64,000 nucleotides of DNA, taken from Octopus sinensis (taxonomy: Eukaryota). The notes beneath the pieces are model-generated. The model did not search any database, was not told the DNA's origin, and saw nothing but the letters and a program-made list of their open reading frames with translations. Position numbers and translations under genes: made by a program. The DNA lies in NCBI RefSeq assembly GCF_006345805.1, contig NC_043007.1:57412001-57476000 (forward strand), written 5' to 3'. Below, piece after piece: positions 59,411 to 63,364 of the stretch. Within the stretch, counting starts at the first letter, position 1, and each line of letters opens with the position of its first letter.

Positions 59411-60773
59411 TATATATATATATATATATATATATATGCGTGTGTGTGTGTGGGTGTGTGTGTGTGTGTGTGTGTGGGTGGGTGTGTGGGGGTGCATGTG
59501 TGTGTGTGTGCGTGTGAGAAATAAAAAAGGAAAATACACACACTTTACATAGTTTTAATATAATTTTTAATATATCGACCGGTTTTGCTTTCGCTATTCA
59601 TGATATTATGGTTTACTTATTTGAATATGTATTTTCTTAAGAAGAAATGTTCGTTCGTGTTGTGTGTGATGATATTTACGAGTGAATAACTTCACAAGTA
59701 GAAAAATGAGGGGAGGTAATTGGTTATCGTTATTATTGTTATTGTTGTTGCTGTGGGCAAGGGAGATAACTGTTCAGCTTTCGGTAACGGGAGGGGAATA
59801 TATATGTACACACAAAAAATAGGTTTCGAAAAAGTTGTTTAGTGAGGGGATTTATGTAGAGTGATGTAATCGTGAATTGAAATATGTAAAAGGATAAAAG
59901 TTGGTTATGCGTGCATGTTAAGACGTGTTCTGTATTTTTCAATGAAAAAATTTCTTTATTTAAACGTTCTTGTGGGGAGATTGTACCTTTGCACTGGTAG
60001 AAGGGGAAGACTGTTAAATTTGGTTTGATGTTATCTGCACATCTTTTTATATGTTCACTGAGAGGAATTGCCTGCATTCGAGAAACGGATTTGTTCTTTA
60101 TGTAGAATTGTTCTCCTTCTCAAAGTATGTATGTATGTATGTATGTATGTATGTATGTATGTATGTATGTATGTATGTATGTATGTATGTATGTATGTAT
60201 GTATGTGTATATATAATAAGAGCACACGAAGCGACTACCTGGTGGAAAGTGGAGTTAAAACCTTCAACTTAACCACCAATGACACTGAAAACTTCAACAG
60301 ACGAGAACAGTTATAACTACACTTTCTAGCAGCTAGGCGCTTTGTGTGCCCTTATGATAAATATAAATTTTAATTGTATACCTATCTGACTGTATTTAGC
60401 TATTTAACGCATGCATCCACCTATAATTTTGTTCATGTTATCGTCAATTTACATTTCCCGCAGATGTAATAACAATAATAATATCTTTATAAATGTTCAC
60501 TTTTGAAAATTTACTCCTTATATAGACACATTACATACATACATACCTACACACAAACACGCACACACACACACGCACACACACACACACACACACACAC
60601 ACAAACACACACACACACACACACACACACACACATATATATATATATATATATATATATAAATATTAAAATTACTAAGTCTCTCTAAAAGAGATTACGA
60701 CAGCGTTACTGGAAATTAATTGTTATCGCCATATTAATATGGCAGTCTTATAGATATAAGACTAAAAGCTGTC

Positions 60774-60816
60774 GCTACATTGACAAAGGGCAAATACCCT
60801 GAAACGCGTCTGTAGC
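60774..60816 (+). ncRNA. Type I hammerhead ribozyme motif, copy 1 (U3:A8 variant)
   Basis: GCTACA-TTGACAA-AGGG(CAAATA)CCCT-GAAA-CGCGTC-TGTAGC: helix I GCTACA/TGTAGC, core UUGACAA, helix II AGGG/CCCT, GAAA, palindromic ACGCGT helix III, predicted cleavage after GUC at 60810. Confidence 0.75.
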
Positions 60817-61298
60817 TGTCTGACTAGCAGTGTGAAGTGGCTGACCTCCCTTGTTCGAAGGTTATAATGGACACAGTTTGTGTATCAAATAGCTATCTTA
60901 AGGCGATGGCCTCATGGAGCTAATCAGCGACAGCTTTTAGTCTTATATCTATAAGACTGCCATATTAATATGGCGATAACAATTAATTTCCAGGAACGCT
61001 GTCGTAATCTCTTTTAGAGAGACTTAGTAATTTTAATATTTCTATTATTGAAAAGAAGTAGATGTATTCCACCGAAACTAGGTAAATAAAACATTCGAAC
61101 AGAGGCGATCAGTGGCGACACCTGCGTGTTTTTGTTTTTGGTGACGGAGAATTCTGATTGCGTTATTGGTGTGTAGCTGTATTTTTTTGGCGGCGGAAAA
61201 AGTTTGACTACGTTATTGTGGTGTCGCGGTTCGTGAGATCGAATCCGGTGGTGGAAGTTGTTACGGCGTGGTGAAGTGTTTGAGATTTTTTCTCGAAA

Positions 61299-62216
61299 AT
61301 GGAAACCCAGACGTATGCGGGTGCAGCAGGCAAGGGCCTGGTTGCGAACGAATTGCAGTTAGAAGAAGACATCGTCGAGAGGGAGACGTTGAACAAGTAT
61401 TTCGACAGCTTGAAGAGGGAGGGTGACTGTGTGAAGGTCATACCACCCGAAGAAGAAGCGGAAGAAGCGGAAAAACGGATTATAACGTACAAAACATGGA
61501 GCGTGACTTCGAAGAAAATAGAAGTGGCACCGATAGAGGAAATTGAATGCTGTCTTAAAGGAATAGAAGGAGAGTCTACCTACTGCAACAGACGTAGAAA
61601 GTTCGCAACGGTGGTCGTTCACTTTAAAAGTGAAGACGAGGCGAAGAAGAACGCAACGAAAATTTTAAAAACTGATAGATGGGTGTGTTTACCAAGCTAC
61701 TGCGGGAAAAGGGCAGTCAGAATAAGAATAAGCAAGATCTCGCCGGGACTAAATATAGAAAGGATTTTAGCAGCAGTGGTGTTTAATTGCAAGGAAAACG
61801 TGGAAATATTGAAAGTCGAAAAATCAAAAGATGTAAAGTGGTGGGGTTATGCAGTGCAGGCGTTAGTCCACATTACAATGCCTGACCTGTATAACATCCC
61901 GGAGGAGTTGGTGTTCCCCGACGAGACACGTCTCAGAGTCGTGGTGGAGGGGAGACCCCCAGTGTGTTACAAATGCAAAATAAGAGGCCACATGAAGGAT
62001 GTGTGTCCGCTGGGAGAAGTGCAGGAGAAAACCATAGCACTGGAGACTTTAACGAATGAGTTGCAAGATGCGTGTGTGGAGGAGGAAATCGTTACTACAG
62101 ATAATGCGGAAAGTGGTGAAGAGTTGGAGAAAGAAAATAGAAAAAGAACGCGGGTGGAATCACCACCTAAAGAACAAAAAAAAAAAGAAGAAAAAAGCGA
62201 AAAACAAGATTACTGA
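61299..62216 (+). CDS. Gag-like / LINE ORF1-type nucleic-acid-binding protein with CCHC zinc knuckle (305 aa)
   Basis: ATG at 61299, non-repetitive protein sequence, CX2CX4HX4C (CYKCKIRGHMKDVC) preceded by VVVEGRPPV (resembles Tx1/L1 ORF1), upstream alpha/beta RRM-like segments, and a charged tail. Confidence 0.85.
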   Translation: METQTYAGAAGKGLVANELQLEEDIVERETLNKYFDSLKREGDCVKVIPPEEEAEEAEKRIITYKTWSVTSKKIEVAPIEEIECCLKGIEGESTYCNRRRKFATVVVHFKSEDEAKKNATKILKTDRWVCLPSYCGKRAVRIRISKISPGLNIERILAAVVFNCKENVEILKVEKSKDVKWWGYAVQALVHITMPDLYNIPEELVFPDETRLRVVVEGRPPVCYKCKIRGHMKDVCPLGEVQEKTIALETLTNELQDACVEEEIVTTDNAESGEELEKENRKRTRVESPPKEQKKKEEKSEKQDY

Positions 62217-62643
62217 CGAGAAGGAAAACCGAATGGGAGAAGAGGATACAAAAGCAGAAGTGAGTGAACCGGTAAAACTAACAGCAGAGGAAGAATGGGA
62301 CAGAAGAATGAAAGAGCAGTTGAAAGCTTGTAAGAGAGGAGGAAGACCCAAGGGAAAGAAACATAGAGTGGTAATGTTATACGAAAAGGACAAAAATACG
62401 GAAAAGATGTTGGCAGGTAGGAAAGGCGTAATTAGAGTAAAGTTGAACCCAGGAATATATAGTGACCTGTGGAAGGCGGTAATCGTGGAGAAAGAGACAG
62501 TGAAGAAAATGGTATATGATTATAGTATATTTGAATGGTTATATGTACGTTATGACACCTTACCAGCTATTGTGGATCAGGATAGCTTAATAGAGTATAT
62601 AACAGATGAAAGACCAGACTATACAGACGAGTGCCCGACGTAG
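62056..62643 (+). CDS. Overlapping +1-frame ORF; probable frameshifted C-terminal part of the ORF1-like protein (unknown domain)
   Basis: 195-aa open frame. Deleting one A from the 11-A run at 62176-62186 fuses it to the upstream ORF, giving a 447-aa protein. The C-terminal ~100 aa are complex and globular-looking. Confidence 0.6.
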   Translation: MSCKMRVWRRKSLLQIMRKVVKSWRKKIEKERGWNHHLKNKKKKKKKAKNKITDEKENRMGEEDTKAEVSEPVKLTAEEEWDRRMKEQLKACKRGGRPKGKKHRVVMLYEKDKNTEKMLAGRKGVIRVKLNPGIYSDLWKAVIVEKETVKKMVYDYSIFEWLYVRYDTLPAIVDQDSLIEYITDERPDYTDECPT

Positions 62644-62867
62644 CAGAGTAATATATGTAATTGTAAAATTGTAAATTGTAAAATTGTATTTTAAATGAAA
62701 TTGCGAGCTTTGGGGGGCTCGTAAGCCGTTCCATCTAATCCATTATAAATATCCATTTCAATTCATAATTTTCGATTTTTTTACTTTATGTACCCCACGT
62801 CATGTCTTGTACTGTCCCCTCTTAATTCGGGCCTTAGTGCCTATAATAAAGATTTCAGTGGCGATAC

Positions 62868-62940
62868 CTGCTGGGTCGACTACGCTACATTGACAAAGGG
62901 CAAATACCCTGAAACGCGTCTGTAGCTGTCTGACTAGCAG
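62868..62940 (+). ncRNA. Type I hammerhead ribozyme motif, copy 2, with extended helix I
   Basis: Core identical to copy 1 at 62884-62926, predicted cleavage after 62920. Helix I extends as CTGCTG-g-GTC-GAC (62868-62880) pairing with GTC-t-GAC-TAGCAG (62928-62940). Confidence 0.8.
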
Positions 62941-63364
62941 TGTAAAGCGGTTGACCTCCCTTGTTCGAAGGTTATAATGGATACAGTTTGTGTATCAAAT
63001 AGCTATCTTAAGGCGATGGCCTCATGGAGCTAATCAGCGACAGCTTTTAGTCTTATATCTATAAGACTGCCATATTAATATGTCGATGACAATTATATAT
63101 ATATATATATATATATATATATATATATATATATATATATAATATATATATATATATAATATATATATATATATATATATATATATATATATATATATAT
63201 ATAAATGTATATATATATATATATAATATATATATATATAATATATATATATATATATATAAATGTATATATATATGTATACAGCAAGCGATAGGTGTAT
63301 TGTCGACGTTTTATATTTATCATTTCACGCGTGCACATTGTTTCTATTTGATTTTGTCGACTAC

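Follow-up and report, generated by a model that had tools for sequence, protein, structure and literature searches.

An ORF1-only LINE nested in a hammerhead ribozyme repeat of Octopus sinensis, probably from a lineage that targets transcription start sites

The window analyzed here, 64,000 nt of Octopus sinensis contig NC_043007.1 (positions 57,412,001 to 57,476,000), contains an open reading frame (ORF) bracketed by two hammerhead ribozymes on the same strand, raising the question of which part of this arrangement is the mobile unit. The initial annotation proposed a cargo-carrying retrozyme, in which a read-through transcript cut after 60810 and 62920 would release a protein-coding 2110-nt RNA able to circularize. 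Our analysis leads to a different answer. We consider it probable that the ORF belongs to an ORF1-only long interspersed element (LINE) that inserted into the hammerhead array at the putative start site of a promoter of the small nuclear RNA (snRNA) type, likely mobilized in trans by L1/Tx1-like partners, and we are comparably confident that it represents a start-site-targeting LINE lineage that parasitizes retrozyme promoters. The two-ribozyme bracket is best explained as a by-product of insertion into a tandem repeat.

The insert has boundaries of its own (Table 1). A 16-bp duplication with one mismatch bounds 1746 bp, and subtracting this length from the 2110-nt spacing of the flanking direct repeats leaves 364 nt, one empty monomer of the host repeat. 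Empty units of this repeat, termed family A, that carry the diagnostic letters of the window occur naturally in tandems of 364 to 365 nt, so that the 364-nt monomer postulated in the initial annotation does exist. At its 3' end, the insert has the motif TGTA(A/C)TGT...ATAATAAAGA in common with an autonomous partner, as recognized by eye; comparison of the 3' untranslated regions (UTRs) by BLASTN gave no alignment. The element contains no ORF2 and is flanked by target-site duplication on both sides, as expected for the half-L1 (HAL1) type. By its sequence, the insert is a separate 1.75-kb LINE inside the ribozyme repeat, with a 3' end and a duplication of its own. We also considered whether the split repeat could reflect a tyrosine-recombinase element (DIRS/Ngaro) and rejected this, since 5'-truncated copies, a fixed 3' end, and a partner with APE and RT domains fit a LINE.

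The CCHC-containing ORF described between the ribozymes is present, with two qualifications. The zf-CCHC match of its 305-aa frame (61299-62216) is weak (E 0.014, below the cut-off), and an A-run near 62176-62186 contains a frameshift, so that the second half of the coding sequence continues in another frame to 62643. Sister copies contain uninterrupted ORF1 frames of ≈440 to 450 aa. The protein is homologous to the LINE ORF1 of an autonomous partner (29% over 236 aa, E 2e-31), its features match a ZCCHC3-like cluster of RRM-RRM-CCHC proteins in the ESM Atlas (0.91), and RRM-type folds match at Z 5.5 to 6.9 on a low-confidence model (predicted local distance difference test [pLDDT] 58). The C-terminal domain yielded no usable ESM Atlas match and a single-sequence model with a pLDDT of 54; a homologue search with the ORF1-only protein at E 0.001 found nothing, and a PDB sequence search returned a single non-significant match. 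Among 16 intact copies, counting pairs with dS > 0.2, the median ratio of nonsynonymous to synonymous substitution (dN/dS) was 0.10 for the N-terminal RRM-CCHC part, 0.27 for the linker, and 0.30 for the C-terminal domain, values indicating that ORF1 is under purifying selection.

The host array, enclosed by (TA)n runs, consists of two 213-nt direct repeats (60773-60985 and 62883-63095) that are 97% alike and lie at a spacing of 2110 nt, together with a 120-nt copy in inverted orientation (60657-60776). Short tandem units with a type I hammerhead, partial tandems, an inverted 5' segment, and microsatellite flanks are retrozyme features, and in its non-coding units and (TA)n flanks as well, the array resembles metazoan non-LTR (long terminal repeat) retrozymes and Penelope pseudo-LTRs (PMC7229834, PMC8557442, bioRxiv 10.64898/2026.07.22.740005). 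Unlike retrozymes as described there, the arrays studied here act as landing sites for a LINE. Sampled array ends at empty loci cluster at unit positions 210 to 219 (17 of 43) and 275 to 279 (18 of 43), and 34 of the 43 are TA-rich. By these features, and with empty copies occurring naturally, the window array is a non-coding repeat of the Penelope type, which bears out the retrozyme/Penelope-type identity first assigned to its hammerheads. The loci examined contained no autonomous Penelope element that could be a partner of family A, no genome-wide search having been made, and a Penelope ORF (GIY-YIG) fragment near locus L070 was rejected as a partner because it does not share the family A unit. 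Several families of hammerhead repeat occur at insert loci (A, B, C, and variants); BLASTN of B and C against the family A unit gave no match.

Both direct repeats begin with one minimal type I hammerhead, comprising a 6-bp stem I, a U3-A8 variant core, a 4-bp stem II, a 2-bp stem III with a palindromic loop, and a GUC ending at 60810 and 62920, after which the cuts are predicted. An Rfam scan missed both. Within 28 natural copies from several families, two-sided changes occur at all six stem-I pairs, all four stem-II pairs, and the 3-8 core pair, and compensatory changes are found in 11 of 13 pairs, C3-G8 to U3-A8 among them. Covariation was 0.64 versus 0.28 after shuffling, with 0 of 500 shuffles as high, in rows pre-selected by a scan demanding pairing and with kinship among sequences inflating the shuffle test. 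The initial description of two hammerheads 2110 nt apart, in 213-nt repeats on the strand of the ORF, is correct. They were also called identical, which applies to the minimal motif; the upstream copy is 5'-truncated by the inversion junction and unable to form the extended stem I that the downstream and empty units possess. In kcal/mol, the minimum free energy is -24.6 for the upstream copy and -37.6 for the downstream one, with empty units at -41 to -43.

What moves as a unit can be judged from the other copies. A DNA search with the insert produced 542 candidates, of which 40 were scored, giving 58 matches, and all 150 scored candidates of a protein search matched. The 3' end of the ORF family could be located in 119 of 156 rows examined and is followed by a strict hammerhead in 53, a worn hammerhead in 7, another element in tandem in 38, and other sequence in 21. 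The composite of ORF and hammerhead repeat does recur, then, at 60 of the 119 ends. The 38 tandem stacks have no ribozyme between copies and mix different subfamilies, and inserts occupy several dissimilar hammerhead-repeat families plus non-ribozyme sites. Together with the insert's own duplication and 3' end, these observations leave the cut-to-cut 2110-nt RNA unsupported as the propagating unit. They bear equally on the possibility that the insert simply happened to land in a common, dead repeat. With 2678 candidates, family A is indeed abundant, the frameshift in the window copy is compatible with such an event, and the nesting itself is real; chance is refuted, however, because the insertion position is fixed relative to the hammerhead at these 60 ends, with the 38 others in stacks at targeted sites, and we give this explanation almost no credence.

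Inserts and flanking units also have different histories in the loci compared. The window unit is 89 to 98% identical to units at 29 empty-array loci, which were chosen as its best matches, and 79 to 92% identical to units at 15 insert-bearing loci. The inserts, by comparison, are 90 to 96% like that of the window in the 11 closest of 16 loci, despite more distant flanking units. Insert and flank similarity are uncorrelated in 13 family-A loci (Mantel r -0.06, p 0.65; one divergent pair removed, and a duplicate row and one truncated locus dropped from the set). Among the 40 scored of 1333 junction candidates, no closer second composite with the window's flank was present. Joint inheritance of insert and flanking unit at unlinked loci, as a cargo-carrying retrozyme implies, was not found, with a few possible exceptions.

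Those exceptions are the best case for a retrozyme in which the 2110-nt RNA circularizes and is copied by a Penelope reverse transcriptase as the main mobile unit. Besides the recurrence of the composite, about five loci (L063, L064, L065, L024, and L142) are 5'-truncated inside the insert, carry no promoter or duplication, and end at array-type positions or (TA)n. At L142, a Penelope-type inverted segment (end 215) is joined directly to the truncated insert (other end 275), so that the template must span the hammerhead site; a circle would allow that, and natural retrozyme circles of 150 to >1000 nt have been reported (PMC7229834). The truncated loci, however, are explained just as well by later deletions or uncleaved linear RNA. 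Multimers of one and the same composite are not seen, the inserts in successive units being only 74 to 80% alike, that is, 20 to 26% different (L006, L069, and L070). The near-identical pair L002/L003 was rejected as co-mobilized copies, as their common flanks mark a local duplication, and in the window, the upstream hammerhead is truncated and not preceded by a promoter of its own. As the main route, a cut-to-cut circle therefore appears very improbable. The approximately five loci suggest occasional co-mobilization with the retrozyme, by Penelope copying of circular or linear RNA that contains the insert, or else later deletion, and copying of the composite by Penelope machinery may be a minority or side route at most.

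Two further observations concern the copies themselves. Locus L069 (G000:C1:194607960-194611900) holds in tandem a second, shorter ORF1-only element (≈1.38 kb) that combines an autonomous-type ORF1 with the 3' UTR of the window family and is an apparent chimera. Copies at L011:1731-3074, L158:2159-3493, and L119 show heavy A-to-G-type change, and the tree program marked their base composition as odd; a possible cause is that the RNA was hyper-edited before it was reverse-transcribed, which would be notable in a cephalopod-like genome.

Autonomous elements occupy the same sites as the ORF1-only copies and encode ORF1 together with an ORF2 containing APE, RT, and zf-RVT domains (Pfam). The two kinds are often stacked together, and because they have insertion sites and mixed tandem stacks in common, ORF1-only copies were likely mobilized in trans by partner ORF2p. 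The best PDB match of the partner ORF2 is human L1 ORF2p (E 3e-66), with R2 at E 4e-23, and the only homologue with a species name is from Argonauta. By these domains (APE, RT, and a C-terminal zinc motif), the partners are L1/Tx1-group LINEs, and they likely belong to the Tx1 clade. An ORF1 with two RRM-like domains and a CCHC knuckle, resembling ZCCHC3, is linked to that clade. The 30 3' ends of one autonomous subfamily comprise 22 at hammerhead repeats, 6 in tandem, 1 at U2, and 1 elsewhere, and all 7 sampled copies of another lie in family A (20 further loci sampled across subfamilies). The family A copy at L339 has both frames intact. Full-length RT-encoding copies at L287, L289, and L290 are found between two family-A hammerheads ≈5.7 kb apart.

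The sites at which these elements insert point to promoters. The hexamer ATCAGT is found at -57 to -61 in 29 of 29 U2 genes and at -56 to -59 in 25 of 30 U1 genes, and among the repeats, families B, C, and C' contain it, and family A a variant of it, 55 to 60 nt before the point of insertion; these families also have a TATA-like box near -30. An snRNA-type promoter has been reported for the newt satellite 2 hammerhead repeat (PMC2220036). At L191, the locus that prompted the search, an autonomous copy adjoins U2 +1 with the U2 promoter upstream (1 of 30 U2 loci), and at L334/L336, a 5'-truncated autonomous copy adjoins U1 +1 with the U1 promoter upstream (1 of 30 U1 loci). The 62 first-in-array flanks form 24 clusters, partly non-independent and some mis-anchored, of which 15 have a TATA-like box and 10 a motif like the proximal sequence element (PSE), compared with 13% and 6% of random positions. 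A young branch of the family targets a CCAAT+TATA repeat and unique sites, that is, RNA polymerase II (Pol II) promoters of the TATA/initiator-like type; one unique site we take to precede a piggyBac-like reading start and another an apparent first exon. In 6 of 11 non-repeat sites, a TATA-like box occurs at -36 to -24 (5% background). Rfam detected no RNA family at 14 non-ribozyme target loci. A U6-type promoter for RNA polymerase III (Pol III) was rejected in favor of the U1/U2 type, considering that U6 lacks ATCAGT at this spacing and that the elements begin with T-runs.

Across unlike target sequences, then, insertion occurs at a fixed distance from promoter elements, with start sites in the repeats that are putative. 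The insert family likely lands repeatedly at transcription start points in ribozyme repeats, U1/U2 genes, and some ordinary promoters, and landing there likely serves to borrow the host promoter. In an ORF tree of 107 copies, target class is clustered (24 changes versus 64 shuffled) and switches repeatedly, at least 9 times for B and at least 4 for C, counts to which recombination among copies could add.

Strong clustering on the tree is also what classical Tx1 specificity would give. On that explanation, a subfamily endonuclease and RNA-DNA pairing read a short target, and the promoter link is an after-effect, arising since only copies behind promoters get transcribed and multiply. The C/C' repeats and U2 both start with ATCG, L178 lies at an unrelated ATCGC, L293 is inserted at a 6- to 7-nt match to its own U1 leader with no promoter motif, and Tx1 target choice has been ascribed chiefly to the endonuclease (PMC4494074). 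The targets of close relatives (A, B, C, U1, the S49 repeat, and unique sites), however, are alike in promoter spacing and little in sequence. The non-repeat landing sites are themselves enriched for TATA-like boxes, and the copy exactly at U1 +1, being 5'-truncated, could not have been selected for later activity of its own. We therefore regard sequence specificity as the sole guide to insertion as unlikely, while allowing it some weight.

Evidence on where the copied RNA begins comes from copies that changed target, which carry after the duplication a foreign leader about one duplication in length. The leader of the U2 insertion (L191) is the first 14 nt of retrozyme C', that of L293 is U1 nt 1 to 17, and others are present in L101, L137, L128, L141, and L160. 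None of the leaders examined reaches the donor promoter or extends ≈300 nt back to the upstream hammerhead. Since they reach no further back than the beginning of the duplication, synthesis of the copied RNA likely started at the putative start site near +1 rather than at the cut of the upstream ribozyme; most simply, transcription from the host promoter would begin at +1 and run through the duplication into the element. The promoter motifs of the window lie between the two ribozymes, so a promoter-driven RNA would be ≈1.8 kb in length and subject to the downstream cut only. For a 2110-nt RNA to form, transcription would have to read through from outside, and the truncated ribozyme would have to be active. 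Contigs of four runs guessed to be RNA cover both repeat and insert, and one is joined across an empty site; such contigs cannot show ends, strand, or circles.

These results suggest the following mechanism for start-site targeting. In each array unit, an ATCAGT-type motif and a TATA-like box are present at the spacing of U1/U2 promoters, and the two would function as a promoter. Particles of ORF1p and ORF2p would be brought to start sites, probably via the bound initiation complex, with SNAPc/TBP as a putative tether, or via opened DNA, and pairing of the RNA 5' leader with targets of the same family may help. Insertion would proceed by target-primed reverse transcription in sense orientation, after which the host promoter would transcribe the element from approximately the first base of the duplication, so that each RNA would begin with ≈15 to 17 nt of host sequence. 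The 3' end of the RNA would be set either by the AATAAA of the element or by the downstream hammerhead, which lies 65 nt beyond, giving ≈1.8 kb. If ORF1p is required in cis, purifying selection in the absence of ORF2 would follow. A broader version, which we put forward only tentatively and hold to be somewhat less probable than its negation, is a three-tier parasite stack: an animal LINE lineage and its selected ORF1-only satellites would read start sites rather than sequence, inserting at +1 of snRNA-type and TATA promoters, using hammerhead retrozymes as their main haven, having their RNA trimmed by the host ribozyme, and sometimes traveling as passengers of Penelope circles.

Several observations weigh against start-site targeting. 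Start sites in the repeats are placed by U1/U2 spacing, the PSE-like hexamer of the window is a variant and not ATCAGT, and 9 of the 24 flank clusters have no TATA-like box and 14 no PSE-like motif in the windows used. The window and pattern of the TATA test were chosen post hoc, 1 of its 6 matches is a (TA)n run, and 1 of its 11 anchors is a tandem junction. U6 promoters have no ATCAGT at that spacing, none of the 15 U6 loci shown contains an insertion, and one subfamily nicks ≈12 to 15 nt further downstream. The clustering of target class by clade could result from sequence-specific endonucleases or leader pairing. Over all 15 family-A loci, the correlation of insert and flank is positive (Mantel r 0.32, p 0.02), driven by one divergent pair. 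A contig of one run guessed to be RNA covers a relative from 61066, 45 nt upstream of the putative start. Finally, template switching, proposed to small RNAs for SINEU, could also produce foreign leaders (PMC4494074); it would not explain the same-subfamily genomic copies at U1 +1.

Other features of the target loci were recorded. In the GAGAAA-tail subfamily (L153, L156, L151, L160, L147, L136, and L143), the downstream nick falls inside the 5' arm of the hammerhead extended stem, an offset seen in B-like as well as C-like repeats. The main target of the youngest ORF1-only branch is a dispersed repeat in which CCAAT and TATA boxes precede 49-nt tandem units (L131, L133, L134, L138, L140, L146, L154, and L158), for which two members scanned gave no Rfam match. 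An insertion array at L279/L132 (G000:C15 near 60858427) lies near a possible Pol III start, in what we take to be the head of a tRNA-derived short interspersed element. Clusters of U6, U1, and U2 genes occupy G000:C1:141.83-141.95 Mb, C15:28.98-29.18 Mb, and C3:19.70-19.73 Mb, and the clustered U6 promoters have an octamer and a TATA box with no ATCAGT near -58, unlike U1/U2. Elsewhere in the window, 168-nt direct repeats and related short repeats surround a GGT-rich low-complexity tract (57949-59332) and are likely nested non-autonomous transposons, and positions 63420-64000 hold what is presumably a decayed Tc1/mariner-like transposase remnant (WPPNS...PLDY-like motif).

Table 1. Features of the interrupted hammerhead array and its insert, in window coordinates.
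Feature	Positions	Strand	Remarks
(TA)n flank, left end of array	60636..60660	.	TA-rich ends typical of empty arrays
Inverted 5' retrozyme segment, Penelope-type, unit positions 154-273	60657..60776	-	98% inverted repeat of 60926-61045
First unit, hammerhead repeat family A, 5'-truncated	60773..61109	+	Monomer 364-365 nt
Upstream hammerhead core	60774..60816	+	Predicted cut after 60810; without 5' strand of extended stem I
PSE-like hexamer, putative promoter element	61054..61059	+	Variant of U1/U2 promoter motif; 56 nt upstream of duplication
TATA-like box	61083..61091	+	≈28 nt upstream of putative start
5' target-site duplication	61110..61125	+	Putative transcription start near 61111-61114; single copy at natural empty sites
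ORF1-only non-autonomous LINE, L1/Tx1-like, HAL1-type	61126..62855	+	
ORF1	61299..62643	+	Two predicted RRM-like domains, CCHC knuckle (aa 222-237), charged linker, conserved C-terminal domain
AATAAA at 3' end of element	62845..62850	+	Common to autonomous partners
3' target-site duplication	62856..62871	+	1 mismatch
Remainder of interrupted unit and next unit up to position 213	62872..63095	+	Common array end
Downstream hammerhead core	62884..62926	+	Extended stem I complete; predicted cut after 62920
(TA)n flank, right end of array	63096..63279	.	

Parts of this organization have precedents. HAL1 is likewise a non-autonomous LINE that encodes ORF1p only and has a 3' motif in common with its autonomous partner (PMC5753468). 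Unlike HAL1, the window family resides in a mollusc genome, its L1/Tx1-type ORF1 is only 29% like that of its partner, and it combines purifying selection across deep subfamilies with fixed-position targeting and tandem stacks. The U2 site of Keno and Utopia is internal to the gene. Tx1, Keno (which has that site in common with Utopia), Kibi/Koshi, Tx1-Mar, and SINEU are, like the elements here, APE-type LINEs in multicopy RNA genes or transposons, and for Tx1-clade elements, transcription from flanking promoters has been proposed and U1/U2-derived 5' additions are known (PMC4494074, PMC4640811). Sequence targets are what the available text of these papers describes, and supplements of PMC4494074 list Tx1 target junctions; the lineage studied here, in contrast, hits U1/U2 +1 and equivalent points in repeats and promoters that are dissimilar. 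Dictyostelium TRE5-A/NLTR-A and yeast Ty3 insert at specific positions with respect to a transcription complex, and TRE5-A ORF1p contacts TBP, Brf1, and Bdp1 (PMC5911963). Those elements differ in using Pol III tRNA/5S genes in amoebae or fungi, TRE5-A inserting ≈50 bp upstream in opposite orientation (PMC5911963), whereas the window lineage uses snRNA-type and Pol II promoters in an animal genome and inserts in sense orientation at the putative start. Dependence on a host transcription unit and host sequence at the 5' end recall R2, for which co-transcription is mentioned in PMC4494074. R2 differs in its single fixed rDNA site and restriction-like nuclease. It also carries its own ribozyme, whereas the ribozyme in the window is part of the host repeat and is situated downstream. 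By analogy, the system would work like TRE5-A targeting combined with an R2-like dependence on a host promoter, with the anatomy of a HAL1-type L1/Tx1 element inside a retrozyme.

Our search of the open literature found no description of this combination of LINE, retrozyme, and start site; Repbase and subscription journals lay outside that search, and the families may already be catalogued. In the open literature available, social amoebae provide the only described case of position-specific LINE insertion steered by transcription machinery, and there it occurs at Pol III genes; animal Tx1 elements are described as sequence-specific. If our interpretation is correct, a lineage landing at +1 of U1, U2, retrozyme, and Pol II promoters would represent a new targeting mode, and the existence of intact young autonomous copies means that this targeting can be assayed. 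The insertions would mark the promoters of invertebrate retrozymes, and likely their start sites, to within a few bases. An ORF1-only family that is under selection and has subfamily-specific offsets and targets makes it possible to test both whether ORF1p steers integration and why half-LINEs retain ORF1.

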